IMG/VR virus record: IMGVR_UViG_3300019458_000017
Coordinates: 1-40,326 of that record
Source: a virus
Strand: one strand, 5' to 3'
Length of the DNA stretch: 40,326 nt
The position numbers were made by a program, and so were the translations under genes. Positions 4,023 through 40,326 of the stretch are shown here, piece after piece (position 1 is the stretch's first letter; every line of letters begins with the position of its first letter). Under the pieces are notes generated by a model. That model searched no databases. It was not told the DNA's origin and saw nothing but the letters and a program-made list of their open reading frames with translations.

Positions 4023-4068
4023 TTGGATTGTGTGAGGTCCAAAGCGAATATGAACACATCGAACACGG

Positions 4069-4126: not shown

Positions 4127-4151
4127 CTTGCCCAAGGGAGGAGAGTGGCTG

Positions 4152-11229: not shown

Positions 11230-11240
11230 GAGGCGTCACG

Positions 11241-12035: not shown

Positions 12036-12038
12036 CCC

Positions 12039-12742: not shown

Positions 12743-12995
12743 CAACGAGCAGATAAAAAAGGCTTGCGCGGACTTCGGGGCTGCCCTCGCTGAGCATCTC
12801 ATCGCGCAGGAGATAGGCGCCAAATGGCCCACCATCAGTGCTACCTTATTGGCGATGCGGGCTTCGCATATGCTCGATGAACTGCGTTTTGCGGTTTCTC
12901 TCGATAATAATCGGGGCAGTAGCCACTACGCACTCGCCATGGGGGCCTTTGCCATGATGATCTGGGACAACCTCGCGAGACAAAAGAATGAGTGA
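12735..12995 (+). CDS. Small helical protein (86 aa), tandem paralog B
   Basis: Begins MNDNEQIKKACADFGAALAEHLIAQEIG.... Has an 8-nt start/stop overlap (ATGAATGA). Confidence 0.7.
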   Translation: MNDNEQIKKACADFGAALAEHLIAQEIGAKWPTISATLLAMRASHMLDELRFAVSLDNNRGSSHYALAMGAFAMMIWDNLARQKNE

Positions 12996-15415: not shown

Positions 15416-17043
15416 CAGTCTCTCCTGTAGCCGTCCCTCTCGGCCTCAGGTCCCCAGTCGGTTTCTCTGATCTTCCCCCACTCCCCATCTTTGTTGCGTA
15501 CCCAAATCCAGCCCGGGGGCGGAGCATAGTCGGGCCTGCCTGAAGCGGCAGACTCGGATGGCCCAGCCCCGGCGGCCGGCTGCGCGGCTTGGATGCCGAG
15601 GACCTTCGACATGATCTCATCTTCAGTGAGTCCGAATCGCCCGGCATGGCGAGTGGCCACCCTCTGGCCGGCCAGTCGAATGGCCTCCTCGGCCGAGTCG
15701 ATGTAGCTTTGCATGAGGTCTTGAATCTGCTTCTTCAGTTCCGGCGTTTGCTCGCCATGCACCCAACGTTGATAGAAGTCGGCGATGCGGTCGACGAGCG
15801 CCTGCCGGTGTTCGAATGGCGCCTTGTCGGCGTCGTTGAGTGCGCCGACCTCTCCGGACGCTCTGGCGGCCTTGATGCTGGCGGCAAACTGGCCCATCGC
15901 GTTGATGTTGGACGCGTTCACGGCCGCGCGAGCCGCGTTGATCATCTCCCGGTCCTTCTTGACCAGTCGATCGAAGTCATCGCCTATCTTCGCCCTGGCG
16001 GCGCCAACTAGGCGTTCTTCGCGTCCCTCCCGGCCCTCGAGGCCCTGCTCGGCGAGGTCGACTTCTCGTTCTCGCAGCGCGAGATTTCGCTCGGCTATTC
16101 CGGATCGAAGAGCGAAGTTCCTGTCTTCGGCTCCGGATCGCAGCATCGGCATCATCTGCTGCAGTTGCGTGAAGGTCACGTCGTCCGGCAATTCGTAGCC
16201 TTTCGCGCGTATGGCCTTCACGAATGTTTTAGGCACACGATCTCTCTCGAGCTTGATGTCCTCTTCCAACTGAGAGACACGCGGGCGAAGCGGGGGAGCC
16301 GCGCCGGCACGCATCCAGGCCGCGTTGACGATCCCGCTGCCAACGTCTTCGCCTGCTTGAGCCAGAGCACGGAAGCCTTCCAGCTTTCGTATGCGATCGC
16401 GCCGTCTCTGATCTTCGTTAGAGGCTTCATCAACATCGAGGTCCCGTTGCTCTGGCGAGTCCGGGATTGCGGATAGTGGGGCCGGGATCCCGGATTCCGG
16501 GCTCCACGGCATGGGCGGCATATTTGGAGCCAGCTCGGCGCGTGCCGCCGTCACCTCTGCGGATGGCGTGGATCCTCCGTATCCGACATCCTGCCGGGCC
16601 TGTATGGTCTCTGGCGATGGGCCGGATGGAAACCTTGGGCCCGCTGCCGGGGGCATCGGCGGCGGCACGTCCCGAAACGGCATCGGGAGGATGCTTGGCC
16701 TCGGCCGCGATGGAATTATGCCTGGAAATGGCGGCAATGGCGGCCGCTCGCCCGGGACGCCTGGCGGCGGCGGCACGTCCCGAAACGGCATCGGCAAGAC
16801 TCTCGGCCGCGAATTCATGAGGTTCAAGAGCCGCTCCGGAGGTAGTGGCGTTTGCTCGCCCGGGACGCCTGGCGGCGGCGGCACGTCCCGAAACGGCATC
16901 GGCAAGACTCTCGGCCGCGATGGAATTATGCCTGGAAATGGCGGCAATGGCGGCCGCTCGCCGGGTATTCCGGGCGCCGGCGGGCCAACGCGGAGGAGCT
17001 CCTTCAGCCGTTCGATCTCTTCGGGGTCAATTACATCTGGCAT
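15415..17043 (-). CDS. Proline-rich-repeat virion protein (542 aa from ATG 17043)
   Basis: GGAGG lies 5 nt upstream of ATG 17043, which is 1 nt after the upstream stop. The track ORF extends to 17130. Its stop overlaps the next ATG. Confidence 0.65.
   Translation of the reverse strand: MPDVIDPEEIERLKELLRVGPPAPGIPGERPPLPPFPGIIPSRPRVLPMPFRDVPPPPGVPGEQTPLPPERLLNLMNSRPRVLPMPFRDVPPPPGVPGERPPLPPFPGIIPSRPRPSILPMPFRDVPPPMPPAAGPRFPSGPSPETIQARQDVGYGGSTPSAEVTAARAELAPNMPPMPWSPESGIPAPLSAIPDSPEQRDLDVDEASNEDQRRRDRIRKLEGFRALAQAGEDVGSGIVNAAWMRAGAAPPLRPRVSQLEEDIKLERDRVPKTFVKAIRAKGYELPDDVTFTQLQQMMPMLRSGAEDRNFALRSGIAERNLALREREVDLAEQGLEGREGREERLVGAARAKIGDDFDRLVKKDREMINAARAAVNASNINAMGQFAASIKAARASGEVGALNDADKAPFEHRQALVDRIADFYQRWVHGEQTPELKKQIQDLMQSYIDSAEEAIRLAGQRVATRHAGRFGLTEDEIMSKVLGIQAAQPAAGAGPSESAASGRPDYAPPPGWIWVRNKDGEWGKIRETDWGPEAERDGYRRD
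16654..16971 (-). repeat. Three tandem in-frame repeats (102-108 nt; 34-36 aa, GVPGE(R/Q)xPLPP...SRPRVLPMPFRDVPPPP)
   Basis: Identical 53-nt blocks occur at 16700-16752 and 16910-16962. A second long identical block occurs at about 16747-16812 and 16855-16920. Confidence 0.9.
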
Positions 17044-17044
17044 G

Positions 17045-18016
17045 TCATCCTCCGAGTCCGAATCCGCCGAAACTTGACGCGGAGTCCCCGATTCCGCCGA
17101 TGCCTCGGCCAAGTGATGATGCGATGGCAATTTTCTCCGCGCGCTTTCTCTCTTCCAGGCCGGCCCGTTGGCTCAATGCGTCGGTTAGCCCGCGCGTCTT
17201 CGCGAGCCGCTGATTGAAGCCGGTGTTCAAGAGTTCGTTCTTCCGATTCAGATTCTCCAACGCGGTCTCGTACCGCGCGATCGCGTTGGCTTCTCCGACT
17301 CTCTGGCGGGTGCCGATGTTGTAGCCCTGAGCGCGCTCCCGGGCCCCCGCTCCATACTGCGCCGCGCCGGTCTTGAGTTGAGAGGCAAGCTCATTGAAGC
17401 GATTCATCGCGGCCGCATTTTTGGCCGCAACGTCTATGTCGGCTCCGCGGATTCTGCTGCCAAGCCCAGAGGCGGCCTCTGCTCCTGTGACGCGGTTTGC
17501 GATCCGCATGGCCGACGTGTCGCGCGCCATTCGCGCGGCCAAGTCCTGCGCGCCCTGATTGGCGCCCAGGCGAGCCGAGATCTCATCGCCGATGGACAAT
17601 CGGCCACGGGATGCCAGGTCTCTGAGAACGTCCTCCTGCGCGGAACGATACTCGCGGCCGAGCGCGCCTTGAACGTCTTCGGTAGCGAGCCGATCGGCGA
17701 GCGGGAGACCCTCTTCGGCGATTCGCTCGAAACGGGACAACCCGCGCAATTCCGCCTCGCGGCCACCCGGCGCGACCTGAAGCATCTCCGGCTGCCCAAC
17801 GATGACGGCCTGATATTGCTCCGGGAACGCCTGGGCTAAGATCTCTCTTTCCGGAGCCGAGAGCGCCGACATATCGAAGTTGGACTCTTCCAGCTTCCGC
17901 CAGATGTTGACTGCCTCGCGGAGGTACTTCGTGCCGCCTCCTCCGGCCATGAGCAGTCCTATTCCGGCTCCGATCCCGCCGCCTAGGTTTGCAAATCCGC
18001 CGCCTCCTTCTGCCAT
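17045..18016 (-). CDS. Virion protein with Gly-rich termini (323 aa)
   Basis: ORF track entry with the termini MAEGGGGFANLGGGIGAGIG... and ...SSFGGFGLGG. Lies within the run of large late proteins. Confidence 0.65.
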   Translation of the reverse strand: MAEGGGGFANLGGGIGAGIGLLMAGGGGTKYLREAVNIWRKLEESNFDMSALSAPEREILAQAFPEQYQAVIVGQPEMLQVAPGGREAELRGLSRFERIAEEGLPLADRLATEDVQGALGREYRSAQEDVLRDLASRGRLSIGDEISARLGANQGAQDLAARMARDTSAMRIANRVTGAEAASGLGSRIRGADIDVAAKNAAAMNRFNELASQLKTGAAQYGAGARERAQGYNIGTRQRVGEANAIARYETALENLNRKNELLNTGFNQRLAKTRGLTDALSQRAGLEERKRAEKIAIASSLGRGIGGIGDSASSFGGFGLGG

Positions 18017-18024
18017 GAATCACC

Positions 18025-19788
18025 TCAGAAAATGTCGGCCGCTATCCGTCCGGAAGTCCCCTCGGCCCTTGAACTCTGTTTGGGCGCCAGCTCGGGCAGT
18101 CCAAGCGTGAGCACATCGGCCGTGATCTGGGCCACCTTCTTCCAGTGCCCGGCCTTCTTGGCCTTCTCGAACTTCTTTCTAGCCTTCTTGATGCCCTGAA
18201 GATCCTCGTCCCTGGCGGTTCCCAGCGCCGCCGTGCGTTCCTGGATCTGCCGCTCGATCTCGGCCAGGTAGAGATCTATTTCGCCGACGATCTTCGGCCG
18301 CTCTCGCGGATCCGCTTCGGCGATCGTGTCGGCAAGACCAAGGATCTCCGATGCCCGGTTATAGGCCTGGCGCTGCTCCGGCGTGGCGACGGTCTCGCGC
18401 GAGATCCCTGTGCCCTCGCTGATCCCAACATAGGGCCGGAGGTCACCTGGCTCAAGTCGTCCTATGCCGCCTCCGTAGTAGAGGGGGTCGTAAACGGCAT
18501 GTTCCCCGAAGTCCTCTTTCAGGACGCCTTTACCTCCGATTCTAGCCCGGTTGACGCCAGGCGAGAAGCCGGCGGCCTCAAAGGCTGCGTTTCGTTCCAT
18601 CGCTCGTTTTCGAAGCAGGTCCATGTCGGCGGTGGTGTAGTTCCCCTTATTGGCGTCGAACCACTCCTTCGGAAAGCCGATTGCGGCCTTCCCGCGGCTC
18701 GTAACCTGTGGCTCTAGGAATGGGATCTCGGCTATATCGGCAAACTGGGCTTCGAGTTCCGCACGTTTGTCTCTGGCAGCCTTAATGCTCTGGATCCGTG
18801 GATCGGCGGCCACCGTCTCGCCCTCTTCGCCTGGCAACGCCACCAAGTCGGCCAGCTTGCCGGATGCCCGGAAGGTCTCCAGTAGGTTTCGAAGCGCGTC
18901 ATCGTACTCCTCTTCCTCGCTAAGGCGGCCCTGAATGCCAGTAAGCGCCTCTCTCTGCCTCGCCTCTGCGAACTGACGGGACTGCGCGGCTATGTCAGCC
19001 TCTTCGGCTTCGCGCGCGCTGGCAAGGCCGCCGGCGGCCTTCTCGGCGCCCACGATCTCGGCCTGGAGCCGGCCTATGTCCGCTTGGAATCCGGCGGCGG
19101 CTTGGCGATACAAAGGATCCTGGAGGATCTCCCGGGCCTCGGTACGGTACTCGCCCGGTGTCAATCCAGGCGATCTCGTGCGGAGGAGGTCTTCGGCTCC
19201 GGTCCCGGTCAGAAAAGACCTTCCGCGGACGCCGAGCTCCTCGGCTTCTCCGCGTGCTATCGCGAGGGCGCCTGGATCGAGCGCCCGCGGGCCCGAGTAC
19301 TGCGCGCGGATGAGGCTCTGCGCGTCTGAAACGTCCCTCGGAGCCGCTTCGCGGCTGAAGGCGCGCTCGAGAAGCCCTGTTCCGCCGATGCCCTCGAAGG
19401 ACCGCCTTTGGCCGGCGGCGGCACTGAAGCGTCCGGCCTCCTGGGCTATCCCGGAGAAGCCGCGCTGGAGGCCCTGAGAGACTGGCGCGAAGAGTCCGGA
19501 ATACGGCGTCTCTCTGGCGGCATAGCCGCGCAGCGAAAAGGCCGGAGATGGAGCCGCCGGGGCGGCTGTTTCCCTCTGGACCTGAGCCGGAGCCAGGCTC
19601 GGAGCCGGCGTGGTCGTCTGCGCGCTGGGCTGCTCGGTTGGCGCGGATGGCGCCGCTGCTTGCGGCTGAGCCGTGGCCGCCGGGGATGGCGAGGCAGAGA
19701 CGCCGTAGAACCGTTCGAGTCCAGGGCTTCCAACCGGCTGAGCCATCAGCTCCGCGAAGTCCCGTTCGGTCTGATATTCCTGTGCCAT
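18025..19788 (-). CDS. Large virion protein (587 aa), unknown function
   Basis: ORF track entry. It abuts the upstream stop (TGAATG) and has an Ala/Pro/Gln-rich N-terminus. Confidence 0.65.
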   Translation of the reverse strand: MAQEYQTERDFAELMAQPVGSPGLERFYGVSASPSPAATAQPQAAAPSAPTEQPSAQTTTPAPSLAPAQVQRETAAPAAPSPAFSLRGYAARETPYSGLFAPVSQGLQRGFSGIAQEAGRFSAAAGQRRSFEGIGGTGLLERAFSREAAPRDVSDAQSLIRAQYSGPRALDPGALAIARGEAEELGVRGRSFLTGTGAEDLLRTRSPGLTPGEYRTEAREILQDPLYRQAAAGFQADIGRLQAEIVGAEKAAGGLASAREAEEADIAAQSRQFAEARQREALTGIQGRLSEEEEYDDALRNLLETFRASGKLADLVALPGEEGETVAADPRIQSIKAARDKRAELEAQFADIAEIPFLEPQVTSRGKAAIGFPKEWFDANKGNYTTADMDLLRKRAMERNAAFEAAGFSPGVNRARIGGKGVLKEDFGEHAVYDPLYYGGGIGRLEPGDLRPYVGISEGTGISRETVATPEQRQAYNRASEILGLADTIAEADPRERPKIVGEIDLYLAEIERQIQERTAALGTARDEDLQGIKKARKKFEKAKKAGHWKKVAQITADVLTLGLPELAPKQSSRAEGTSGRIAADIF

Positions 19789-20169
19789 TCATCCCCCCCG
19801 GATCAGCATCCGGACGGTCACTTTTCCGGCCGGAGCCGAGTCAAAGAACAGCGCCATCTTAATCGACCTCTCATTCAAGACCTGCCATCGGCGGATTCGC
19901 GGCACCTCTCCGGCGCTCGAATAGTACGGGATGGCGCCGCGTGGGGGGCCCTTGAGCGTATTGAGGCCGATCGTGATGTCGGTGTCGTGCTGGCACTCGA
20001 ACTCACGGTCCTCGTCGTTGGAATTGACGCCGAGAACGAATCGATTCTGGAGCAGCTCGGTGATGTCCTTCAGTTGCTTTCCCTGGACGCGCATCGGGAC
20101 CTCCAGGGCCGGCGGGATGCCTGGAAATTGACTCCGCGTGGGGTGGACGTAGTTGCCTATGCGCTTCAT
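19789..20169 (-). CDS. Structural-module protein (126 aa)
   Basis: ORF track entry with an ATGA overlap to the upstream stop. Confidence 0.65.
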   Translation of the reverse strand: MKRIGNYVHPTRSQFPGIPPALEVPMRVQGKQLKDITELLQNRFVLGVNSNDEDREFECQHDTDITIGLNTLKGPPRGAIPYYSSAGEVPRIRRWQVLNERSIKMALFFDSAPAGKVTVRMLIRGG

Positions 20170-23100
20170 CGCTGCGCCCTGGTCGTCGCCGAGCTGATCG
20201 GGTTGTAGTCGATGGCCAACTGGAGGATGTTGACCGCCTCAAGCGCCCACTTGTGGCGGTACATCGGGCGAATGGTCTCACAACGCCGATGCGCCTTCGG
20301 CACGCCGGCCCGAACTGGAATCGAGTGGCTGGGCAGCGGATCTCCCCAAATGGCTCCCCAGTCCGAGCCCCACCCGCTTCCGCGCGGGTGATCGATTCTG
20401 GGCGACCACGCTTCGATGCCGATCGAGTTCGAGATCCAGCCGAGATAATGGTGCTTCGCCGACGTGTCCTCCATGTAGACCTGGGTTTGCGTGAACTCCT
20501 TCTTGATGCCGACGTTTCCGGCGGCTTCGTCAACCCACTCGATTCGCATCTCGATCGGAATCGACAGAAAGGCCGCGCCGGCGATGAGCGGGATCTCGCG
20601 ATCGAGTGTGACGGAATAGTTGCCGCCGCCGAGATTCGTGACGATCTGGGCCACGCCGCGATGCGGATCCTGGGTGAGGAGCCATCCCTCGGTGAGCGGC
20701 TCCGAATAGGAGTACGCCACGGTAACCTTGGAGTAGGTCTGTCCGGAGATGATCACCGTCGTCGGCGACGAAAGAGTTACCGCGATGTCTTCGTCAACCA
20801 GGTCGTTCGAGGAGAAGTCCTTTCGCTCCTTGAGCACGAAGGCATCCTTCGAGTGCCCGAGGTAGAGGCGATCGTCTTTTGGGTCCGGACCCTGGATGAT
20901 GATCCCGGTCGATACCGACTTCTCCCACGGACCAGACCACTCGTTCAGCCGCACGTCGTAAACCCATGCCAGCTCGGCATGCCCGCTGGTGGAGATGTCC
21001 GGGACGAAGAGGAGGTATTTGAGATCGCTCTCGTATGGCACGGAGAAGACGGATGCGCCGAAGTTCGAGAGTCGTCGCACGGCGTCAAGAAGGTCTCGGA
21101 TGTCCTGAGAGATGAGCGCGTAGCCGGCCGAGGACACGCGCGCGAGCCCCTGACGGAACCAGCCGATGGCCACGTTGTCGATGGAGAAGAATGTGTCTGG
21201 GTGAATCAAGATCAGGGTGGTGTCTACTTCGCGGACTACGAACGAGCGGCCGGACGCCTTGTCGGTCTCTCCGGAGACTTCGTACATCCCGGCCTTTGTG
21301 GCTATCAAGAGCGATTCTTTTGTTGCCACCATGCCGAGAATCTCGAATCCTGGCTTTCCGATGTCTAACTCGTTTAGCCTCGGCATTGATTCGTACTTCT
21401 GAAACTTAGATGGCGCGATCTTGTGCGATCCGGCGGAATTGCTTGAGATGATGGAGGTTCCCGAGGCCGGAATCACGGGCGAGAACTTCGGCCCGGCCGC
21501 CGCCGTGGCGTTCAAGTGGAATGCGTTGTCGATGAGGTCTCGGCGTTCGATGAGGATCTTGCCGGCCGGCTCGTCAACGGCGCTGACGTAGAAGGCGTTG
21601 ACCGGAGAGCCGGCGTCTCTGTTAATGATCTTCGTTAAGCTTTGCGCCGTCTTTCGCACCGCCACGGCGCTCGTGCCTTCAGCGGCCTTCGTGTGCCGGC
21701 GGAACTTCTTCAGCGCGACATCCTCGGCCGTCGAGAAGGTGTAGGTGCGAGATGCCGCACCTACGGAGATCGTGATCGAGTCCACATCGTCGGTAATGCC
21801 CTCTATGCTTGTAAGCCGGATCTCGCGTTGATGCTCGCGGTAGATCCAGCCGAGCCAGGCGTGTCCCTGCCACGGAACAACGAATCGAGCGAACGGCGGG
21901 CGATCGTTCTGCTGGAGTATTCCCTCGCCGGTCCCTTCGTTCGTGTAGAGATTGATCCCGCGGAAACTGTCGTCGTAAGTGTCCAGGAAGGTGACGAATC
22001 CGTTCGAGACATCGGTCGAGCCGATGTCGTTTCGGATGATCAGCTTGCCGTCGTCGAGCGGCACATCGGCCGCCTGCGCGCTTCGCGTGGTGCGATAAAC
22101 CTCGTACCACATTCCGGCCGTCACGTCGGCCGGTAGCGTTGCCGTCAGCGTGACATCGGAAGCCTTGCCGGCGAACGCCGTGGCCGTCGGATTCACCGGA
22201 GCGATGGAGATCGAGTAGGTGTAAGTGTTCGCATTCACCACGGTGATCGTGTGCGCGCCCTGGATATAGTCCGCCTGCGAAGGATTGATGATCTCGATGG
22301 TGTCTCCGGTGGAGAACCCGTGCGCGGCGTGGGTCACGGTAATGTCCGGGTAGGCCAGGAATGCCAGAGAGACCGATGCCGCCGTGTTGGTCACGGTGGC
22401 GAGAAAGCTCGGCGCGCCCGGAGGAAGCTCATCGCGGCCGAAGACGATTCGATAGCCGACCTGCCCATCGGGCTCGAACCAGGATCCGCCGGCGCCGGAG
22501 AGCGCCAGTTGCACATCGAGCCCCCTCGGAATCCCGGAACGCCTCGGCGTGTCCGTGGGGCTCGACTGGATCATCATCCCCATGTCGGTGAGAAAGTAGA
22601 ATTTCTCGTCTATCTCGGATCCCCTCATGCGGACGCCGGGCGGAGGCGAGTATGTGCCGGGCCAGGATGCCAGAGTGCCGAGTCCATCGGAATCGTATTT
22701 GAGCGTCGTTCCGTCGAGGACCACCAAACGGAAAAGATACTGAAAGAGCTGGCTCGGCGCCGCGGTGGCGAGTGCGGCGTTACGAGCCAGCCCGCGACGC
22801 GAAGAAATCACGTTGTCTCTGTCGATGACCGAGTTTCGCGCAAAGAGGAGAGACCCCTCGGGGGCCGTCAGGCGGTTCCGCCACGTCTGGAGGCCCCTCG
22901 CACGCCGAATGAGCGTCTGCTGGCCCGCCATGATGCCTATCCGCACCAACGCGGTAGTGACCTCGACTTCCGGGACGACGATCGGAACCGATTCATCGAC
23001 GAACCAAGATGCGCGGTCCTCTCGATGCCAGCCGCGCATCTTTCGCGTTGACGCGCTCGGAAACCACGTATCGGCTCCGGGCACGACCACCGGCGCCGGA

Positions 23101-32779: not shown

Positions 32780-34894
32780 CTATGCCGCCTCCTGGGCGGT
32801 TTCTGATCTCAGATGCTCCCTCGCATCGCCGAGAATCTGCTTTGCGCCCGCAACCGGACGCGCTTGACCAGGAGGAGCGCGCGGCGGCTCTTCTGGATTT
32901 TCGCCCGGGCCCTCGATTTGACGTTGACCTCCCGGAGATCCCGAAGGCGCTCCTATCTGCAGCCCACCCATTGGCCCGGCCAGCATGGACAGGACCTGCA
33001 TCAATTCTGGAGGCGCCCACTTGAGCGCCACCATGAAGGCTTGCGCGACTCCATTCTGGCTTAGCATCGCCATGTGCTGAAGGACGTGCGGCATCACCCG
33101 CATAACGAGCGAATCGTCCATTCGCGCCTCGACTGATCCAACCAAATCGCTGACGTGAATCTTCATGTGGCTCAAGTGATCATCGGTGATGCTGACGACA
33201 ACCTGTCCGCCCTCCTTGATGGTCTCGTTCTCTTCGTGCGCCAGTTTGGTCTGGTTCTCGATGGGATCTAGGACTCTCTGAGCCGGCGAGCCGTTGAAGA
33301 CCGAGAGCAGTTCCTTTTCGTTGGTGATGAGTCCCAGCTCCGCCATCATCTTGGCCACCTGGAATCGACCGGACGGAGTGCGCAGCGCGGGATTGCCCGG
33401 CTTCACGATCACCCTGGAGACCTTCTTGAGGCCCGCTCGGCTCATCTTCGAGTAACGCACGATGTCTCCGGCTCCGACAATGGGCACCTCAAGACCCTCC
33501 TCGATCTTCTCCGAGAAGATGTCGAGCACGCTTTGCCCAACGCTCGACGCGGCGTCCAGCGCGGCCTGATCGAAGAGCCCGTTCGCCTGAACGGTCTTCA
33601 TGTCCAGAAGGGCCGCATGGACCCCGCTGGTCTCCTTGTCTTGGATGCCTCGTGAGACGGCGGAGATGTTCGAGACCGAGTCCATGCGGGCGAGGATGTT
33701 GTCTATCTGATGCTGGATTTCCGGAGACGACTTGAGAAAGTCGAGCACCTTCACTTCTTCGCCGAGGAGGATTCCCGCGCCCGGCTCGAGCGCCTTCCAG
33801 TTGGGAGCCGCCTTGCTCCAGAGCATCGTCTGACCGAACTTTCGCGCGTTCGTGAGCGCCGTAGAGATGAGGATATTGAGCGCCTCTTGCAGCGGCGCCA
33901 GGTCAACTGCGGGCGAGTGGCCGATGACCGATGTCCCGAGCATCTCGGAGTGAAAAAGCGTGTGAATCGGCAGGCTCTTGTAGAGAGGGGAGCCGCCGGG
34001 TCCGAGCGGAATGCCTCCATCCTTGAGCACGGTATCGCCCACGAAGCAGGTGAAGCGTCCGGCGGGCAACGCCGGCGTCGGGAGATGGACGAAATACCAC
34101 TTGTCCACCAGGTCGTCATCGTAGTCGCTCTGAACGAGCCCGCGTTCGATGCCGTGGAATCGATAGATCTCATCGCTGGATCGTCCGGCCGAGGCCAGGA
34201 TCTCATCGCGCTTGGAGAAATAAGTCTCGGCGACATCCCAGATGAGCCTTCGACTTCGCCAGAGCGCCCACTTTCGCTCTTCCGGCCTGGCGTGGGTGGG
34301 ATCGAATACGACATCGGCCAGGGTGGGATTCTCGATGCAAAGATCGCCCGAATGGTAGATGTCGAGAGTGTTTTCGTCTCCGCCGATCTCATCGCCTTTC
34401 GTCTCATCCCAGTAGGCCGCGACGTATCCGACTCGGTAGATGAGCGCGTGCTCCTTCTGTCTGCGCAACGCGCGCGCCATCGAATATTTCGGCTCGTCCA
34501 TGACCCAGTCGAGCAGCCCTGCGGCCCGTTTAGCCTCGTCCAGCGTGGCTTGGCTCGTGTCCGCGCCCTGAGGATCCCAGTCAATCTCCTTCTGGGTGTA
34601 GCTGAGTAGGATTTGCAGACGCGCGCGAAACTCGTTGACTCCGAGCTGCGAGATGTCGAGGTCCTCGCCGCCCATGACGATCTTTCCGCCCTCCCAGTCG
34701 TAGAAGAGCCCCTGATAGAACCGCCAGAGTTTGTAAACTCCGTCCACAATGGCCGACTCTTCCAAGAATCTCCAGAACTGCTCGCGCTTGTCTTCAAGGC
34801 TCTCGATGAGCACGTCCGGATCAGGTTCGGCGGCCCAGTACGTGTCGGCCGATCCGAGCCGCTTCGTGCGTCCTTCGCCTCCGTAGGATCTCAC
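32780..34894 (-). CDS. Portal protein candidate (704 aa)
   Basis: Large ORF just downstream of the terminase, with a GTG start in a GTGA overlap. Called from size and position only. Confidence 0.65.
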   Translation of the reverse strand: MRSYGGEGRTKRLGSADTYWAAEPDPDVLIESLEDKREQFWRFLEESAIVDGVYKLWRFYQGLFYDWEGGKIVMGGEDLDISQLGVNEFRARLQILLSYTQKEIDWDPQGADTSQATLDEAKRAAGLLDWVMDEPKYSMARALRRQKEHALIYRVGYVAAYWDETKGDEIGGDENTLDIYHSGDLCIENPTLADVVFDPTHARPEERKWALWRSRRLIWDVAETYFSKRDEILASAGRSSDEIYRFHGIERGLVQSDYDDDLVDKWYFVHLPTPALPAGRFTCFVGDTVLKDGGIPLGPGGSPLYKSLPIHTLFHSEMLGTSVIGHSPAVDLAPLQEALNILISTALTNARKFGQTMLWSKAAPNWKALEPGAGILLGEEVKVLDFLKSSPEIQHQIDNILARMDSVSNISAVSRGIQDKETSGVHAALLDMKTVQANGLFDQAALDAASSVGQSVLDIFSEKIEEGLEVPIVGAGDIVRYSKMSRAGLKKVSRVIVKPGNPALRTPSGRFQVAKMMAELGLITNEKELLSVFNGSPAQRVLDPIENQTKLAHEENETIKEGGQVVVSITDDHLSHMKIHVSDLVGSVEARMDDSLVMRVMPHVLQHMAMLSQNGVAQAFMVALKWAPPELMQVLSMLAGPMGGLQIGAPSGSPGGQRQIEGPGENPEEPPRAPPGQARPVAGAKQILGDAREHLRSETAQEAA

Positions 34895-35109
34895 GTGATC
34901 ACCGTCTTCGCCTGGACAACGAAGGTGCCTTCCTTTGTGTCCTTGATCTCTATCCCGGCGAGCAGGAGATCGCGTTCCATCTTGGCGCGCTTGTTCTTCA
35001 TGATCTCGTACTCGGCCTGAAGTGCGCGAAGCCTACGGACAATCTCGCCCATGCGGACTATTGCCGCGTTGCGGGCGTCGACGATCCGAGCAACCTCTTG
35101 AGGGTTCAT
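34891..35109 (-). CDS. Small coiled-coil protein (72 aa from ATG 35109)
   Basis: ATGA overlap with the terminase stop. Its own stop overlaps the portal GTG. Confidence 0.55.
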   Translation of the reverse strand: MNPQEVARIVDARNAAIVRMGEIVRRLRALQAEYEIMKNKRAKMERDLLLAGIEIKDTKEGTFVVQAKTVIT

Positions 35110-36617
35110 TTGAACCACGAATCCTTGGGCTTGATGTAGCCTTCGAGAATCTTGATCTCCGCCCCGTCTTCTACGATGAGTCTTGGCGCATCGCTAAGAA
35201 CTTCTTTTGGCTTCCAGTTCTGCCGCACGAAGACATCCGTCTCTTGAGGTCGAAACGCGGGCTCCGGGTTCTTCTCCCACGGCGCCATTCGCGCCATGTA
35301 GATCAGAGCCGCCGTGGCGTCCTGATGGCCCAAGGTGTCCGTGCGTTCGAGATCGCCGTGTTTGTCGAGCAGACCGGCGAGACACTGATAGCGGAGGACC
35401 TTCGCGCCGTCTAGGATGCGCAGTCTTCCCTCGTTCACGACAGTTCGAAGCCTTCTGAGCGCCTGGCGCTTATCGTACTTATCGACAGGAATCATGTGGA
35501 CGTGATGCTCTGAGCGAAAATCGTCCAGCTCCTTTTCGGTCGCGTCGGCGTAGAGCTTCACATCGTCTCGGCCGGGGAAGAGATCCTTTTTGAAGGATAG
35601 GATCTCCTCAACGAACCTCCTCGTGTTCGCACGCTTCAAGATGCGGGCCTTTTCAACGACCAAGATCCCCGGCCGCCAGTCGACGTACCCGCCCAGAACC
35701 GCCACGGGATCGGGATCGTAGCCGAGATCCGCGACGATGAGGGGCGTGAACCACCGCGGCCGCTCGTAACGCGGAATCTCGATGATGTCCTTCTGCTCCG
35801 AATACTCCGGGATCGTCGCGCGTTCGGTGTCCTGGATAAGCTGACACTCGGCCTCGCGAAGCCAGAAGGGGCTCTTGTCGTCTCCATCGCACGCCTTCAG
35901 AATCCGTTCGCGATCGATGGCGCTGAAATCCGGATTCTGGCTGGAGCGACACTCGAAGTACCGGCCATCTTCGATGGCGAGGGGAACGTAGCCACCATCG
36001 GCTCGCACGAGATCGTGATCCAGACTGGCCGGAGGAGTGGAGATCATGACGAGCAAGGGATCCGGCGTGCCCGTAAACGAGAAGACGAGCACGTTTTGAA
36101 CGAAGTCCTTGAGCGCCTTCACGTCCCGCGCTTCGTCTACGATGACGACATCCTGCCGCCCGCAACCACGGATGTGCGCGCCATCGGCATGATCGGTCCC
36201 AAGGTAGCGCAGGACCGATGGCGGAGATCCCCTCGGCCATGCGGGATTGCTAACGATGATCTGCCGGTCTGCCTTCGAGTGCTTGATCCGAAACCCACGC
36301 GGCGCCCTCGGCAAGATGAGGGACAAGGGCTGCTCCATGTTTCTCTCGGTCTGGTTCGCCAGGGGACTCAGAAAGAGCACGTGCGTGCCCGGCTGCATCA
36401 GGCACCGCTCGATTCCGTAGATGACCGTGATCGTTGTCTTCCCAAGGTGACGATGGCAGAGCGAAGCCACGGGCCCGAGATCGTTCGGCCGGTCCCGCTT
36501 GAAGTCGTGGACGAAATCGTAGAACCTCCTCTGCCCGTGCCGGCGCAGAAGGTAGGAGAGGCATCCGGCCCGCCAGGAGTCCTCGACCGTGATAGTCCTC
36601 TCCAGCGTGACGCTCAC
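35106..36617 (-). CDS. terL: Terminase large subunit
   Basis: Walker A-like HRHLGKTT and Walker B DVVIVDEA in the N-terminal half, with a nuclease-sized C-terminal half. GTG start in a GTGA overlap. Confidence 0.8.
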   Translation of the reverse strand: MSVTLERTITVEDSWRAGCLSYLLRRHGQRRFYDFVHDFKRDRPNDLGPVASLCHRHLGKTTITVIYGIERCLMQPGTHVLFLSPLANQTERNMEQPLSLILPRAPRGFRIKHSKADRQIIVSNPAWPRGSPPSVLRYLGTDHADGAHIRGCGRQDVVIVDEARDVKALKDFVQNVLVFSFTGTPDPLLVMISTPPASLDHDLVRADGGYVPLAIEDGRYFECRSSQNPDFSAIDRERILKACDGDDKSPFWLREAECQLIQDTERATIPEYSEQKDIIEIPRYERPRWFTPLIVADLGYDPDPVAVLGGYVDWRPGILVVEKARILKRANTRRFVEEILSFKKDLFPGRDDVKLYADATEKELDDFRSEHHVHMIPVDKYDKRQALRRLRTVVNEGRLRILDGAKVLRYQCLAGLLDKHGDLERTDTLGHQDATAALIYMARMAPWEKNPEPAFRPQETDVFVRQNWKPKEVLSDAPRLIVEDGAEIKILEGYIKPKDSWFK

Positions 36618-36871
36618 ACGGCACCTATCCGGGGCTGCACGGTGCGGATCCTCGTAGTCACCTCGATGGCCCCGATCCTGCGGTCGAGCCCATCTAGCTT
36701 CTCCGAGATGCCCTGAAGCTCAGCCATGGCGGGCTTCTCATCGTGCGCCTTCAACTGGTCGAGGAGCGACGTCAGCGCCACGAGTAGATGCGCCTCAGGA
36801 TGGCGTGCCGCCTGAACCTTCCCGCGCAGATCCGCGATGGACTCAAGCAGAACCGCCCGATAGTCATCCAC
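36614..36871 (-). CDS. Small helical protein (85 aa), possible small terminase or partner
   Basis: Lies immediately upstream of terL and is translationally coupled to it. GTG start. Confidence 0.45.
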   Translation of the reverse strand: MDDYRAVLLESIADLRGKVQAARHPEAHLLVALTSLLDQLKAHDEKPAMAELQGISEKLDGLDRRIGAIEVTTRIRTVQPRIGAV

Positions 36872-37004
36872 GGGCGACCTTAGCCACGCCGGCCGCGATG
36901 GCCCCGAAGAGCCCCCGCTGCTTCCGGGTCAGCTTGTGCCCCCGCACGGAGCCATGCCGGAGCATCTCCTTCGCCTTGTCCTTCGTGATCTTTCGACCCT
37001 TCAT
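36864..37004 (-). CDS. Micro-ORF (46 aa: MKGRKITKDKAKEMLRHGSVRGHKLTRKQRGLFGAIAAGVAKVARG)
   Basis: Hand-translated codon by codon; below the track cutoff. ATGA overlap with the upstream stop (37001-37004). Confidence 0.45.
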   Translation of the reverse strand: MKGRKITKDKAKEMLRHGSVRGHKLTRKQRGLFGAIAAGVAKVARG

Positions 37005-37198
37005 GAAACCCCCTTCGGCCGCGTGGCCGCGTGATAGCCCTTCTTCCGCCGCTTCCTCCGGTAGGTCACGGGCTCACAGGGCCAAGGGCCCATGGCCATC
37101 TCTAGGTCGCCCCGCTCCCACGGCATGGCGGGCACTGTCACCGAGGCGCCGAAGCGGATGAGCCGCCTCTCTACCGTGAGCTTATCACGCCTAGGCAT
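37001..37198 (-). CDS. Small basic protein (65 aa)
   Basis: ORF track entry with GAGGAGGAG immediately upstream of the ATG. Confidence 0.45.
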   Translation of the reverse strand: MPRRDKLTVERRLIRFGASVTVPAMPWERGDLEMAMGPWPCEPVTYRRKRRKKGYHAATRPKGVS

Positions 37199-37614
37199 CG
37201 CTCCTCCTCGATCCCGCGAATCCCACCGGCCTGCAGGATCTTCTTCTCGGCGGCTCGGATCTGCTCGGCGGTGATGATGGGCCGCTGATCTTCTACGCCG
37301 GCGAGGTCCTGCGCCTCAGCCGCGGCGTGAGCCTCGTCGCGAACCGAGACGTACGCGTGGACGAACTCGTGGACGACAAACGCCGTGGTCCTGGCGCGCT
37401 TGTAGTCGATCTTGGCCCGGCGAAGGCTCCGCAGGGCGCCCATGAGCGTGGCCATCACCTCCCGGATGGGCGCCGGCCACCACGCGACGTCGTCGAGCGG
37501 AGCGGCGGCAAACTCCTTCGGCCTCATCTGCCGGGGCATCTTCGGCGGCGGCAGGTTGGGGTAGACCTTAGCCCGCCACTCAAGGAAGTCCTTGGTGTCC
37601 TTTCGCATCATCAT
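37171..37614 (-). CDS. Hypothetical protein (147 aa from ATG 37614)
   Basis: ATGA overlap with the stop of 37611..38291. The track ORF extends to 37668. Confidence 0.6.
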   Translation of the reverse strand: MMMRKDTKDFLEWRAKVYPNLPPPKMPRQMRPKEFAAAPLDDVAWWPAPIREVMATLMGALRSLRRAKIDYKRARTTAFVVHEFVHAYVSVRDEAHAAAEAQDLAGVEDQRPIITAEQIRAAEKKILQAGGIRGIEEERCLGVISSR

Positions 37615-38291
37615 GGCTCTGCGCTCTCCTTCGCGTTCACTGGCGCGCGGCATCTCGACGGCCGACAAGCGCCGTCGGGTCCGTCCGCGCCGTCGAAGTC
37701 ATCGTCAGTCGGCATCTCCGATGGGCAGTCCGATGGGCCGGAAACTTCCTTCCGGAAACTTTTTTCCGAGGGGGGTCCATTTTGGGGGTCGGCCGAAAAG
37801 CGCGGGCCTAGCACGATGTCGGGATCCAGATGCGGGGGCAGCCTACCCTCCGCTCGGGCGCGGTCGACCTTCTCCCGGAGGAACTCGGTCAGGGACGCCA
37901 TCCGGGCCCGGAGGTGGTCCACGAAACGGTCCTCTGTATCGGCCGGCTCCTGGACCGCAGCCGCCGGGTCCGACACGCGCTTCGGGTCCTCCGGGTTCAC
38001 TTTTTGCGGCAAAGATGGCGCCTCGAATCGCTCGGCGAGACCAGCCAGAGGGTCCGATAAAATTCCGGCCGCTCGATCCCCAGGCGCCTGCTGGCGAACC
38101 CCCACCTGTACCACCCCCCGCTCCAGGTCCAGGATGGTCAGAGTCGCCTCTCCGAGCCGCTCGATCGGCACCCCACAACGCCGAAAAATCGCCCGCACCA
38201 CCCCGTCCCGACTCGCCTCAGCCGCCCGAATCTCGCGCATAACTGCTTTCAGGCCTTCACGTTGCGCGTCGTCCAGAACGACAAAATTCAT
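37611..38291 (-). CDS. First gene of the leftward arm (226 aa), unknown function
   Basis: ORF track entry with GAGGAA 4 nt upstream of the ATG. Acidic, Pro-rich C-terminal half. Confidence 0.6.
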   Translation of the reverse strand: MNFVVLDDAQREGLKAVMREIRAAEASRDGVVRAIFRRCGVPIERLGEATLTILDLERGVVQVGVRQQAPGDRAAGILSDPLAGLAERFEAPSLPQKVNPEDPKRVSDPAAAVQEPADTEDRFVDHLRARMASLTEFLREKVDRARAEGRLPPHLDPDIVLGPRFSADPQNGPPSEKSFRKEVSGPSDCPSEMPTDDDFDGADGPDGACRPSRCRAPVNAKESAEP

Positions 38292-38377
38292 CGATTCCTC
38301 AGCCTTTCTGGCCGTTTGAGCGGCCTAGCAAAGCGTTCCATTTTCGGAACACACTTGAATCAGATTTCGAATTTCCG

Positions 38378-38496
38378 TGCTTCATTTTGAAGCATCCCGA
38401 GTCGTAAATTTTACGAGTGCGTTGATTCCATTGAGTTTACGTCATCGATTCGTTCCGCCGGCGAGCCTGAATAAGCGGCGAATCGTGCAAATTGCA
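38378..38496. promoter_or_regulatory. AT-rich island with three short palindromes (candidate operators, promoter region or origin)
   Basis: The palindromes are TGCTTCA-TTT-TGAAGCA (38378-38394), CGTAAA-T-TTTACG (38403-38415) and TGCAA-A-TTGCA (38486-38496). This is the most AT-rich stretch noticed in the window. Confidence 0.4.
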
Positions 38497-38544
38497 AGGT
38501 TTCTTTGAAATCATTGAAGTTACGACTTTGTGGCACGCGTTTTT

Positions 38545-38570
38545 GGGGGGAGACAGGGGGGGTGGGGGGG
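38545..38570 (+). other. G-tract cluster 1 (G6-AGACA-G7-T-G7), G-quadruplex-capable
   Basis: Read directly: GGGGGGAGACAGGGGGGGTGGGGGGG. Confidence 0.6.
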
Positions 38571-38600
38571 CTAGGCTCGGCGCCCTCAGTCCGAAACCCC

Positions 38601-38623
38601 TGGACAGCCTGGACAGGGTGGAC
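38601..38623 (+). repeat. 9-bp-phased iterons TGGACAG-CC-TGGACAG-GG-TGGAC
   Basis: Read directly. Lies between the two G-tract clusters. Confidence 0.6.
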
Positions 38624-38650
38624 CTCACGGCGCGGGTACTTTTCGACAGC

Positions 38651-38669
38651 GGGGGGTGGGGGTGGTGGG
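38651..38669 (+). other. G-tract cluster 2 (canonical G4 motif GGGGGGTGGGGGTGGTGGG)
   Basis: Read directly; contains four or more G-runs separated by single T residues. Confidence 0.6.
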
Positions 38670-38757
38670 TGCCCGGCGCATTTTGCCGCATCCTCCGGGC
38701 AAGCTCTTTGCCGCATAAAGTTCGGTATTTGTTCGGGTGGTTCCTCCGGCCGTGTCT

Positions 38758-39090
38758 CTACCGCCGGCGGCGCGACTTTGCAAGCTCTCGGGGCAAAAAT
38801 CTTTTGCGATTTCCCGGATTTCTCTTGCGCTTCTCGCGTTTCTCGCTATACTTCACGGCATGGATGGGACGTGTGCCGTGATTCTTCCCCCCCCCTCTCC
38901 GCTCTCGGATGTCGAGTCGGACGCCGGCGAGTCGGCCGGCGTCGAAGAGCTCGAGAAGCCTCAAGAGCGCAAGGTCGAGCACCTTGGTCTTGGGCAAATC
39001 CAAGGCGAGCGACAGTCGGTTCTGCGCGGCGAGGGCTTCGGCGGAGAGCCAGTAGCTACGGGGGCCCGGGCGGAGATGTGTGCGGTTCAT
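38758..39090 (-). CDS. Ribbon-helix-helix-like candidate regulator (110 aa), uncertain
   Basis: The internal ATG 39090 of track ORF 38758..39312 gives MNRTHLRPGPRSYWLSAEALAAQNRLSLALDLPKTKVLDLALLRLLELFD.., a strand-helix-turn-helix pattern, followed by a basic tail. It is fully antisense to the + frame 38860..39153, and composition does not decide between the two. Confidence 0.3.
   Translation of the reverse strand: MNRTHLRPGPRSYWLSAEALAAQNRLSLALDLPKTKVLDLALLRLLELFDAGRLAGVRLDIRERRGGGKNHGTRPIHAVKYSEKREKRKRNPGNRKRFLPRELAKSRRRR
38825..38852 (+). promoter_or_regulatory. Rightward sigma70-like promoter candidate (early arm)
   Basis: TTGCGC (38825-38830), 16-nt spacer, TATACT (38847-38852). An ATG lies 7 nt downstream (38860). 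Confidence 0.45.
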
Positions 39091-39097
39091 GGCGCCC

Positions 39098-39125
39098 ACC
39101 ATAGCGAGAAAAGTCACGAATGCCA
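39098..39125 (-). promoter_or_regulatory. Leftward promoter candidate, inverted relative of 38825..38852
   Basis: The minus strand reads TGGCAT, 16-nt spacer, TATGGT, 7 nt, ATG (39090). It shares the 11-nt TTTCTCGCTAT with the rightward promoter (38839-38849 versus the complement of 39101-39111). Confidence 0.4.
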
Positions 39126-39145
39126 GCATGGGCTGGTGGAAAGGA
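39123..39145 (+). promoter_or_regulatory. Stem-loop + SD of the same architecture, different stem sequence
   Basis: CCAGC-ATGG-GCTGG, then T, then GGAAAGGA; ATG at 39154. Confidence 0.5.
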
Positions 39146-39153
39146 TCGACCTG

Positions 39154-39381
39154 ATGGACGCTTACGTTTTTAAAGGGAATCTCTACTGCGCGCACCACGC
39201 CGGCATCATCCGTGATGACATCGAGAGGCGGGGAGGTGCCCCCGACTGCCCAGAAGATTTGTCCGATTTCGACGCGGACGAGTACCCGCTGCCCGCGGTT
39301 TCGCGTGCTCACGATAATCGGCCACGATTTTGCGTTGCGTGCGGGACCTTTATCGGCTTCCTCGGCATGGTGCGGACATGA
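39154..39381 (+). CDS. Small protein (75 aa), diverged paralog of 1259..1579
   Basis: The sequence MDAYVFKGNLYCAHH...FCVACG and the 26 nt spanning SD and start are identical to 1244-1269. It is the 3' part of track ORF 38737..39381. Confidence 0.7.
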   Translation: MDAYVFKGNLYCAHHAGIIRDDIERRGGAPDCPEDLSDFDADEYPLPAVSRAHDNRPRFCVACGTFIGFLGMVRT

Positions 39382-39632
39382 GGCGTAGTGGCATGCAGTC
39401 CACCTTTTTCATCCGTGTGCCGGCCGGGCAGTACGAGTTCCAGCAAACCGAGCGGACCGGACCGGGATGGGAAGCGCCGCGTATCGTCACTCAGATCCGC
39501 CATCCCGAGTACGCCCCACGCTGGCGGATCGTCTATCGCACCAGCACCGATCGCGGGTGGTATCTCCGGGATCCCCAGTCCGGGCGGCTCGGCACTACCC
39601 AGTCGGCCACTTGTGTCGTTTTTGAAGACTGA
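39378..39632 (+). CDS. Small protein (84 aa)
   Basis: ATG 39378 in an ATGA overlap. ATG 39393 is an alternative start. Confidence 0.6.
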   Translation: MRRSGMQSTFFIRVPAGQYEFQQTERTGPGWEAPRIVTQIRHPEYAPRWRIVYRTSTDRGWYLRDPQSGRLGTTQSATCVVFED

Positions 39633-39649
39633 ACTGAAAGGAACCCAAC

Positions 39650-40326
39650 ATGCTGATCCCCAAAAATCTCCTCAATGTCGCCCGCATCGCCGATGACGAT
39701 TTCGGGACGCGGAAAAAGCTTGGTGGCGTGCACCTGAAGACCATCGATGGCGCGCCCGCTATGCGGGCCAGGATCGAAGCCACCGATGGCAAGATCCTGA
39801 TCCGCTCTGAGTTCTCGCCGTGGTCAGAGTCGGAGTTCCCCGTGCCGCCCGGAGAAACGCCGGCTCCGGCCGATGCGCCGGAAGCCCCCATCGATGTCAT
39901 CATCCCCGCCGAAGCGGCCGTGATCGCCCAGGGGCTCCCCCCGAAAGCGACAAAGCACGGGAAGGAAATCCTGCAAGAGGTGCGCGTGCGAGCGAACGGT
40001 GAGGGCACCGTGCATTTCATGGCCACCGATCTCGGCGGATTCCGCTCTCATAGCGAGCGGGCGATCGATGGCACCTTCGTCAAGATGGATGCCGCACTGG
40101 ACTACACCGGCAAAACGGATCCGATTGCGTTCAATCTCGTGCGATTGAAGGAGCTCATCGATGCGCTCCTGAAGGTCCATCCGCCGGGGACTGATAAGGG
40201 AAACGAGCGGAATGGGCACCCGCTCCGGCTCGCCTCTCTCGGTTTCGGGACCGGCGGAACCCTGCACGTCGTCGTCACCGATGGGACGACGCAGACGCAC
40301 GCGGTCGCCATGCCGATGCGGGCGAC
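39650..40326 (+). CDS. Short DnaN (beta sliding clamp)-like protein; 226 aa when joined across the junction to base 127
   Basis: Hand-translated; it runs off the window end, so it is absent from the ORF track. GAAAGGA lies 7 nt upstream. The motifs ATDGKILIR, ERAIDGTFVKMDAAL (compare clamp IDGxFPDY) and the C-terminal ...VAMPMR are typical of beta clamps. Confidence 0.6.
   Translation, partial: MLIPKNLLNVARIADDDFGTRKKLGGVHLKTIDGAPAMRARIEATDGKILIRSEFSPWSESEFPVPPGETPAPADAPEAPIDVIIPAEAAVIAQGLPPKATKHGKEILQEVRVRANGEGTVHFMATDLGGFRSHSERAIDGTFVKMDAALDYTGKTDPIAFNLVRLKELIDALLKVHPPGTDKGNERNGHPLRLASLGFGTGGTLHVVVTDGTTQTHAVAMPMRA
40204..40326. repeat. Terminal direct repeat, right copy (exact match to 1..123)
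   Basis: Compared base by base. Confidence 0.95.

Follow-up and report, generated by a model that had tools for sequence, protein, structure and literature searches.

Predicted Convergent Promoters Enclose a Small Ribbon-Helix-Helix-like Gene in the Divergent Gap of a Novel Tailed Phage

Results

Organization of the Divergent Gap

The subject of this work is a module of predicted elements in a phage genome, in which two face-to-face promoter-like sites enclose a small gene for a ribbon-helix-helix (RHH)-like protein. The analyzed stretch of DNA, hereafter called the window, is the IMG/VR virus record IMGVR_UViG_3300019458_000017 at positions 1 to 40,326 (40,326 nucleotides (nt)). It is a circular or terminally redundant assembly with bases 1-123 identical to 40204-40326 and a unique length of ~40.2 kb (about 40,203 bp), and it was shown to represent a novel tailed phage. 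The window matches ENA contig ERZ27251176 k141_894913, and an identical copy is held by Logan SRR7811943. In this only other copy of the phage the region of interest is identical, and hence no substitution information was obtained from it. No DNA similar to the window was present among GenBank phages. Scans of IMG/VR with the minus-strand open reading frame (ORF) described below, the neighboring 225-residue protein, the large terminase, and the alignment of the protein family did not return relatives.

The genes of the virion and packaging arm are located on the minus strand, from 38291 down through the large terminase (35106-36617) and the portal protein (32780-34894). The early arm is read from the plus strand, beginning at 39154 and continuing across the window junction to a PDDEXK nuclease and an SMC-like ATPase. 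The interval 38292-39153 between the arms is the sole divergent gap of the genome. The promoter pair sits inside it, in agreement with the initial annotation, which had placed the pair exactly where the two arms diverge.

All predicted elements of the module fall within 320 bp. The RHH-like gene, which is unannotated in the source and was recognized from homologues, codon substitutions, and predicted fold, occupies 38758-39090 on the minus strand and specifies 110 residues. Its candidate promoter, P(-), consists of the -35 box TGGCAT (39125-39120), a 16-nt spacer, and the -10 box TATGGT (39103-39098) on the minus strand; the 7 nt GGGCGCC separate the -10 box from the ATG at 39090 (complement of 39088-39090). 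The candidate early-arm promoter, P(+), is placed in the 3' part of the RHH ORF on the plus strand and reads back through the whole gene. It comprises TTGCGC (38825-38830), a 16-nt spacer, and TATACT (38847-38852), and is followed after 7 nt by an ATG (38860-38862). These promoter and start codon coordinates, given for both strands in the initial annotation, were all confirmed in the sequence.

Downstream of P(+), the plus strand carries an ORF that is an antisense shadow of the RHH gene (38860-39153) and then the first gene of the early arm (39138-39381), identified by its ribosome-binding site GGAAAGGA at 39138-39145 and by a paralogue; the coding sequence spans 39154-39381 (75 residues). 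Where the ORFs 38737-39381 (plus strand) and 38758-39312 (minus strand) overlap, their codons are in phase, and the plus ORF shares its frame with the 39154 gene. The geometry of the fully antisense ORF pair that had been described for this site thus proved correct. The status of its plus-strand member as coding sequence did not withstand the comparisons given below.

Evidence for a Gene on the Minus Strand

Sequence comparisons show that the minus-strand ORF running from 39090 to 38758 is a real gene that was overlooked by the source gene caller. An exhaustive HMMER search of 1.84 billion representative proteins returned four homologues of 66-83 residues (E = 1.4e-11 to 7.6e-4), which were 47-55% identical to the query over its residues 2-67. 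A profile search added two further homologues to give a total of six, with E-values reaching 1e-21 to 1e-32. The alignments begin at the N termini of the homologues and finish near their stop codons, and the conserved core comprises residues 9-62 (38905-39066). The six relatives are encoded at the loci L004 to L009; their proteins are 32-52% identical to one another, except for one pair at 91%. A further locus from the metagenome scan, L010, lies among response-regulator genes and was discarded as spurious.

The family was found only by the exhaustive HMMER search. A word-indexed protein search with the minus ORF gave no match, and searches of Pfam, PHROGs, and PDB sequences with either ORF gave nothing useful. 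The minus-strand product of the window itself was not returned by either protein search; it is apparently absent from the protein collection because the source caller chose the antisense ORF.

Codon alignments of the seven genes allowed the frames to be compared by their substitution patterns, an approach that the initial annotation had suggested. The pattern fits the minus frame. Differences per site at positions 1, 2, and 3 of this frame amounted to 0.44, 0.36, and 0.61, and the closest pair of genes gave 0.06, 0.05, and 0.30, such that third positions were the most variable. Amino acid identity among the relatives was 45% in the minus frame versus 25% in the antisense frame. Scoring by codon usage and by G+C content at third codon positions did not separate the in-phase antisense frames, the difference being 0.02-0.03 nats per codon.

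The C-terminal part of the 110-residue product differs from that of its relatives. Residues ~82-110 (38761-38847) constitute a read-through tail that is not present in the prophage-type relatives of 66-75 residues. In these five shorter relatives, a stop codon (TAA or TAG) is located inside the -10 box of the promoter that corresponds to P(+), here referred to as the antisense promoter. In the window, this -10 box stands 1 nt closer to the CAT codon, which puts the TAG out of frame, and the ORF therefore runs on for ~29 very basic codons. A similar read-through in L005 results in a product of 83 residues. Within the RHH gene, a run of nine C residues was noticed at 38887-38895; a change of its length by one base would truncate the protein.

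Status of the Plus-strand Frame

The source gene callers joined the shadow ORF to the true early gene and thereby recorded proteins of 173 residues (ENA record) and 167 residues (Logan record). Such a protein would be real if both strands code, with a leaderless 173-residue product made from ATG 38860 antisense over the RHH gene. In the antisense frame, the first codon position was the most variable, and the frame is interrupted by stop codons in L005 and in the P0007 gene of L008; these two loci also have no ATG at the corresponding place. Against this, the frame is open in L004, L006, and L007, and four relatives carry an ATG 8 nt after the antisense -10 box, just as ATG 38860 of the window follows a good -10 box by 7 nt in a frame that is open and continuous with the 39154 gene. 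Codon statistics, as stated above, cannot separate the frames. The low antisense identity speaks against coding by both strands, as does the lack of homologues: for the 173-residue plus ORF none was found except its own identical copy, and its N-terminal 98 residues are without any homologue. A Shine-Dalgarno sequence before ATG 38860 was not found.

The ATG can be accounted for in another way. Its complement is the codon for His77 in the RHH gene, and CAT is the classical context of a transcription start. In four relatives, CATG is found at 8 nt from the antisense -10 box, although the C-terminal tail around it is variable. The conserved CATG at the antisense promoter points to a constraint at the DNA level that would not require an antisense protein.

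The start of the first early gene was examined in the same context. Nearly all genes of the phage have a Shine-Dalgarno sequence of the GAAAGGA type 6-8 nt before the ATG. ATG 39154 is preceded by GGAAAGGATCGACCTG, which from GAAAGGA onward is the same as the sequence before gene 1259, and GAAAGGATCGACCTGATGGAC at the 39154 start, containing the ribosome-binding site and the first codons, is identical to the start of that gene. The product of 1259-1579 is a paralogue of the 39154-39381 product (42% identity from Met1 onward, E = 9e-15). It starts at the Met equivalent to that of 39154. Homologues, substitution pattern, ribosome-binding sites, and the paralogue led us to the conclusion that the minus ORF is a real gene, that the true plus-strand gene begins at 39154, and that the plus-strand codons 38860-39153 are an antisense shadow of the RHH gene. 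We regard it as highly improbable that both strands code. The interval 38860-39153 is most likely an untranslated 294-nt leader of the early transcript. The 39154-39381 product is rich in Cys and His and gave no match to helix-turn-helix families. Both paralogues share the Cys/His-rich pattern MDAY.FK..LYCA...C..CG, and neither matches Pfam.

Predicted Fold of the 110-Residue Protein

An AlphaFold2 model calculated from the seven-sequence alignment had a confident core (predicted local distance difference test values of 82-96 over residues 11-50) with helices at residues 17-30 and 34-50. They are preceded by an extended confident segment (residues 11-16) in which no strand was called, as is expected of a monomer model. 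When the model was compared with the PDB by Foldseek, nearly all of the top neighbors were RHH proteins, namely the MazE6 N-terminal domain, the PutA DNA-binding domain, CopG, CdbA, ORF56, and TacA. The TM-scores normalized to target length were 0.62-0.78 (0.72-0.78 for CopG) with root mean square deviations of 1.1-2.7 Å, but E-values were at least 1.2. The top viral neighbors in BFVD were annotated as "Arc-like", "Repressor", and "CopG" with E-values of at least 0.65. Pfam RHH_1 was weakly matched by two of the seven family members (E = 0.071, sub-threshold).

The RHH (CopG/Arc/MetJ) superfamily is characterized by a strand-helix-helix core of ~45 residues. The model is of matching size, and its extended N-terminal segment is followed by helix A, a short turn, and helix B in the order known from that superfamily. 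The protein differs in that it has no match to a Pfam RHH model and in its inter-helix turn, which reads DLPK, whereas the turn of RHH proteins is usually G-x-S/T/N. An RHH-like fold is the best available reading of the model, as the initial annotation had proposed from the N terminus, with the structure prediction performed here yielding the strand-less extended segment and two helices and with RHH proteins as top neighbors, at statistically insecure scores. By sequence, the protein appears to represent a new family.

Conservation of the Promoter Pair

Promoters were scored with one sigma-70 weight matrix at every position on both strands of the window and of the six related loci. Among the 80,354 positions of the window, P(+) ranked 9th and P(-) 72nd. 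A strict consensus scan (at least 9 of 12 matches) of 36500-40326 did not report either promoter, P(+) matching the consensus at 8/12 and P(-) at 6/12 positions. Sites of similar score are present elsewhere in the gap, at 38381-38410 on the plus strand (10.6) and at 38435-38408 on the minus strand (7.7), both in its AT-rich part (38340-38540).

Taken by themselves, these values would fit an explanation in which the promoter matches are incidental, the small gene alone is real, and the true promoters are located elsewhere, e.g. in the AT-rich part just mentioned. The relatives provided a different picture. In each of the six loci, both sites ranked 1st to 3rd of all positions on both strands (2,154-20,266 positions), with antisense-site ranks of 1, 1, 1, 1, 2, and 3. 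Written as -35 box/spacer length/-10 box, the sense promoter, i.e. the equivalent of P(-), is TTGATT/17/TACTTT in L004, TGGAAA/17/TAAGCT in L005 (with a weak -35 box), TTGCTT/18/TACAAT in L006, TTGTTT/17/TACACT in L007, TTGACC/16/CACAAT in L008, and TTGCTC/17/TACCAT in L009. The antisense promoter is TTGACT/16/TACCGT in L004, TTGAAA/17/TATCGT in L005, TTGACA/18/TATTCT in both L006 and L008, TTGACG/16/TACCCT in L007, and TTGACT/16/TACCTT in L009. That near-consensus sites such as TTGACA/18/TATTCT and TTGAAA/17/TATCGT occupy the same two positions in six divergent loci, and score best there, makes incidental matches very unlikely.

The placement of the two sites is likewise conserved. Between the end of the sense -10 box and an in-frame ATG there are 6 nt in L004 and L006 to L009 and 8 nt in L005; the close apposition of -10 box and ATG first noticed in the window is therefore kept, at 6-8 nt, on the side of the RHH gene. 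The antisense promoter, usually the stronger of the two, lies across the final codons of the gene and is directed back through the gene in all six relatives. The end of its -10 box is 213-224 nt away from the first ATG in the relatives and 238 nt away in the window. Both hexamer pairs have been retained although the proteins are only 32-52% identical and third positions differ at ~0.6 of sites, from which we infer selection on both. The face-to-face pair that the initial annotation had read from a single sequence is thus conserved as two promoter-like sites in all six relatives. It is because both promoters recur at the same places in all of these loci that we consider the pair to be more than chance; the decisive support is comparative.

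The direction of the antisense promoter is informative in L005, which is the closest relative by gene content and encodes a PDDEXK nuclease 41% identical to that of the window (5129-5953). The L005 antisense promoter has the top score of its locus and points through the RHH gene and a 229-nt spacer to co-oriented early genes. No terminator-like site was found on the plus strand of the window from 38860 to 39154, and the predicted fold of the plus-strand leader RNA is unremarkable (z-score -0.96). Because the window and L005 have the same arrangement, no terminator-like site is present, and the leader fold is unremarkable, P(+) is read as an early promoter. Rfam returned nothing for 38200-39400 but a sub-threshold match at 39216-39242 (18.6 bits versus a gathering score of 37.8, E = 0.18).

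Shared Motifs and Candidate Operators

The two promoters of the window had been reported to share an 11-mer and to look like an inverted duplication of one promoter. Exactly two copies of the 11-mer TTTCTCGCTAT are present in the window, at 38839-38849 on the plus strand and at 39101-39111 on the minus strand, and the copies extend to 24-nt inverted arms that are 75% complementary. Inverted 11-mer pairs no more than 400 nt apart occur 13 times in the genome, compared with a mean of 6.6 in genomes simulated by a first-order Markov process from dinucleotide frequencies. Thus, the sharing itself is real and the idea that it exceeds chance is not upheld. An inverted duplication of one promoter is not supported either, given that chance can explain the 11-mer and that, within each relative, spacing differs between the two promoters.

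RHH proteins act as dimers whose paired N-terminal strands enter the major groove at repeated operator sites. Shorter repeats in the spacers may have such a regulatory role. Two direct copies of TTCTCGC (38831-38837 and 38840-38846, plus strand) lie in the P(+) spacer and are candidate operators for the RHH protein. The second TTTCTCGCTAT copy (39101-39111, minus strand), which contains TTCTCGC at 39104-39110 and covers the spacer and the start of the P(-) -10 box, is a further candidate. TTCTCGC has 15 copies in the window, three of which fall within 280 nt here; by estimate, this clustering is only marginally significant. Among the relatives, GTAGCG follows directly after the -35 box of both promoters in L004, L007, and L009, and a permutation test of within-locus versus cross-locus spacer similarity gave p = 0.05. 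In L005, a direct repeat consisting of ACTACAGGTATT and ACTACAGGGATT, spaced 27 nt, was observed at 2263-2301, where it adjoins the sense promoter on the upstream side and extends into it; the two copies may form an operator pair.

Translation Start of the RHH mRNA

The 6-8 nt between -10 box and ATG would place the start of transcription at or next to the start codon, and the geometry makes leaderless translation of the RHH mRNA plausible. The same few nucleotides hold GGAGG or a close variant in all six relatives (GGAGG itself in five), and in five relatives a second in-frame ATG lies 6-9 nt beyond the first. In the window, GGTGGG is found 4 nt before the ATG of the RHH gene. The RHH mRNA may accordingly not be leaderless: transcripts from further upstream would be translated by way of the Shine-Dalgarno sequence (GGTGGG in the window, GGAGG in the relatives), and the -10-like hexamer would be a non-promoter or of minor importance. 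The second ATG stands at canonical Shine-Dalgarno spacing from the conserved GGAGG, most genes of the phage use a strong Shine-Dalgarno sequence, and L004 and L009 have the end of a tRNA gene immediately upstream, from which read-through could provide a leader. This explanation is harder to reconcile with the hexamers, which in five of the six relatives are paired with a TTGnnn -35 box at 16-18 nt and belong to sites ranking 1st to 3rd. Moreover, the GAGG of L004 is merely 1 nt from the first ATG, and the sequence upstream in the window contains only the diverging 39154 gene. G-rich sequence immediately downstream of a -10 box can also contribute to promoter function, through the discriminator contact of sigma region 1.2. 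On balance, we consider a leadered RHH mRNA of this kind unlikely, though it has more in its favor than incidental promoter matches or coding by both strands.

Relation to Integrase and tRNA Genes

In L005, L007, L008, and L009, a gene for a tyrosine recombinase is arranged tail-to-tail with the RHH gene. In L004 (50-135) and L009 (514-599), the sense -35 box directly follows the last base of a tRNA-Leu(CAA) gene, and L006 begins with an apparent tRNA 3' end. The 3' end of tRNA-Leu, abutting the promoter, is the likely attachment site of the prophages. In the temperate relatives, the module thus sits between the likely tRNA attachment site and the convergent integrase gene. Scans of genome contigs with the tRNA-promoter junction pattern and with the tRNA itself each gave no match. 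Two partial copies of the anticodon-arm sequence were noted in L008 at 1798-1861. The 226-residue genes near the regulator in L007 and L009 were considered as homologues of the window gene 37611-38291 and were rejected, as they are not homologous.

These surroundings raise the question whether the RHH protein works chiefly in integration, by regulating the integrase or setting the direction of recombination, and is not a repressor of the early promoter. Its gene is immediately convergent with the tyrosine-recombinase gene in four relatives and abuts the likely attachment site in L004 and L009. The phage of the window, by contrast, keeps the gene and both promoters though no integrase is detectable in it, and the antisense promoter feeds the early arm there and in L005. 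L008, in addition, possesses a separate excisionase-like gene of the HTH_17 type. A function confined mainly to integration is for these reasons judged improbable.

Where the relatives have the convergent integrase gene, the window has a 466-nt gap (38292-38757) without convincing coding potential and with no detectable integrase remnant. Long G runs are present in this gap downstream of the RHH gene, GGGGGGAGACAGGGGGGGTGGGGGGG and GGGGGGTGGGGGTGGTGGG on the plus strand at 38545-38570 and 38651-38669. On a minus-strand RNA these would be C-rich tracts at which Rho could load. The first G run is also the point at which the Logan assembly breaks.

Further Features of the Early Arm

A second candidate regulator is encoded late in the early arm at 10320-10817 (plus strand); the 165-residue protein has two winged-helix matches of the MarR/PadR/GntR type (E = 3e-7). 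Before several early genes, a short GC hairpin (GCGCCC-n3-GGCGCG) is joined directly to the Shine-Dalgarno sequence GGAAAGGA. This combined element was located by sequence on the plus strand at about 185-206, 450-470, 767-788, and 1588-1609. The hairpin looks like a repeated intergenic element and is perhaps a signal for RNA processing, stability, or termination.

Discussion

We favor, with moderate confidence, the interpretation that the module is a switch of convergent promoters with a regulator gene nested between them. P(+) would be the early promoter, and the first 294 nt of every early transcript would form a leader antisense to the RHH mRNA over its whole length. P(-) would be the weaker promoter and give rise to an RHH mRNA with no leader or nearly none. 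The two promoters would antagonize each other by collision of polymerases over ~230 bp of convergent transcription and by pairing of the two RNAs. The RHH protein would be a repressor that binds the repeats in the promoter spacers (TTCTCGC in the window), shuts off P(+), and regulates its own promoter. Together, collision, RNA pairing, and repression would constitute a two-state switch.

A number of points weigh against this interpretation. All of the promoters are matches to the sigma-70 consensus and are predicted only. P(-) is weak, with a -35 box that matches at two of six positions and a site ranked 72nd. The six relatives are homologous, so their agreement represents conservation and not six independent observations. 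The sharing of TTTCTCGCTAT alone is within chance, and the spacer motifs common to the two promoters of a locus, though suggestive of operators, are marginal. A longer transcript that is translated by way of a Shine-Dalgarno sequence is a live alternative in view of GGAGG or GGTGGG and the second ATG. With respect to the protein, the window sequence gave no match in Pfam even at E <= 10, and a PDB sequence and profile search gave only weak matches to unrelated proteins (E 0.5-1.1). Its assignment to the RHH proteins is statistically insecure, with Foldseek E-values above 0.6. Finally, no integrase is detectable in the phage of the window, and a role in the decision between lysis and lysogeny is therefore not established here.

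The position of the module next to a tRNA gene in prophages invoked the additional idea that integration rewires the switch by cutting the early arm off from its promoter. In both loci that are in phage form, the window and L005, the early arm is on the side equivalent to the tRNA; in the prophages L004 and L009 the -35 box begins at the first base after tRNA-Leu. If the attachment site is situated just upstream of the regulator promoter, the strong antisense promoter would reach the early genes only on a circular, excised, or newly infecting genome. Integration would cut off the early arm and leave only a full-length antisense RNA against the regulator. The ATG at both predicted starts might load ribosomes on both 5' ends, and ribosome loading on the antisense transcript could shield the long leader from premature termination. 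We offer this extension as a speculative one that is probably not correct.

The convergent-promoter switch proposed here can be compared with known systems. In P2-like phages, face-to-face promoters lie 40-60 bp apart (PMC7498355). The predicted start-to-start distance, obtained by arithmetic from the coordinates, amounts to about 231 bp for the window and to 207-218 bp for the relatives, and a whole regulator gene is accommodated between the promoters. As in P2 and 186, two convergent promoters are predicted for opposed developmental transcripts, with a DNA-binding regulator at or between them, and transcriptional interference is the expected coupling. The differences extend beyond spacing (about 207-231 bp between starts). 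The regulator has an RHH-like fold and is not a homologue of P2 C or 186 CI. In the relatives, the integrase and regulator genes are convergent; the repressor gene of 186, by contrast, is found past the lytic promoter and shares a transcript with the integrase gene. The first lytic gene encodes the 75-residue Cys/His protein, and no Cox- or Apl-like protein was found. The P2/186 precedent invoked by the initial annotation consequently holds for the logic of convergent promoters and not for membership in that family, from which the module departs in spacing, gene order, and repressor family.

Phage lambda has the convergent pair PR and PRE around cro, PRE being dependent on CII, and a leaderless cI mRNA from PRM. 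The likeness to PR/PRE resides in a small regulator gene between convergent promoters a few hundred bp apart, with one transcript antisense to the whole gene, and the likeness to PRM/cI in a repressor mRNA that would start at its AUG, for which the present module offers geometry only. The gene cro points with the lytic operon, whereas the nested gene described here points away from the early arm. In addition, the antisense promoter is near consensus and probably constitutive, the fold differs, and there is no sequence homology.

The immI region of P22 contains Pant, the RHH gene arc, and the convergent promoter Psar; the sar RNA is terminated, is ~69 nt long, and targets the ribosome-binding site of ant. 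Both systems have an RHH repressor gene, predicted in our case, with a promoter upstream and a convergent promoter just downstream that makes antisense RNA. In P22 the RHH protein represses its own promoter, as is proposed here. In contrast to P22, a terminator was not predicted, the antisense transcript seems to serve as early-arm mRNA, and no sequence similarity to Arc or Mnt was detectable. The module belongs to none of the P2/186, lambda, and P22 systems.

The locus also exemplifies an annotation trap in GC-rich genomes: the caller took the antisense shadow, fused it to a 75-residue gene, and overlooked the regulator, and only six relatives were present in the collection. The layout is conserved over a previously unrecognized family of small proteins of DNA-binding type, whose members come from uncultivated phages and from prophages adjacent to tRNA genes. 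If the proposed switch is correct, it would be a distinct layout among phage decision circuits, in which convergent transcription would span the entire regulator gene and each early transcript would also be a complete antisense RNA to the mRNA of the regulator.

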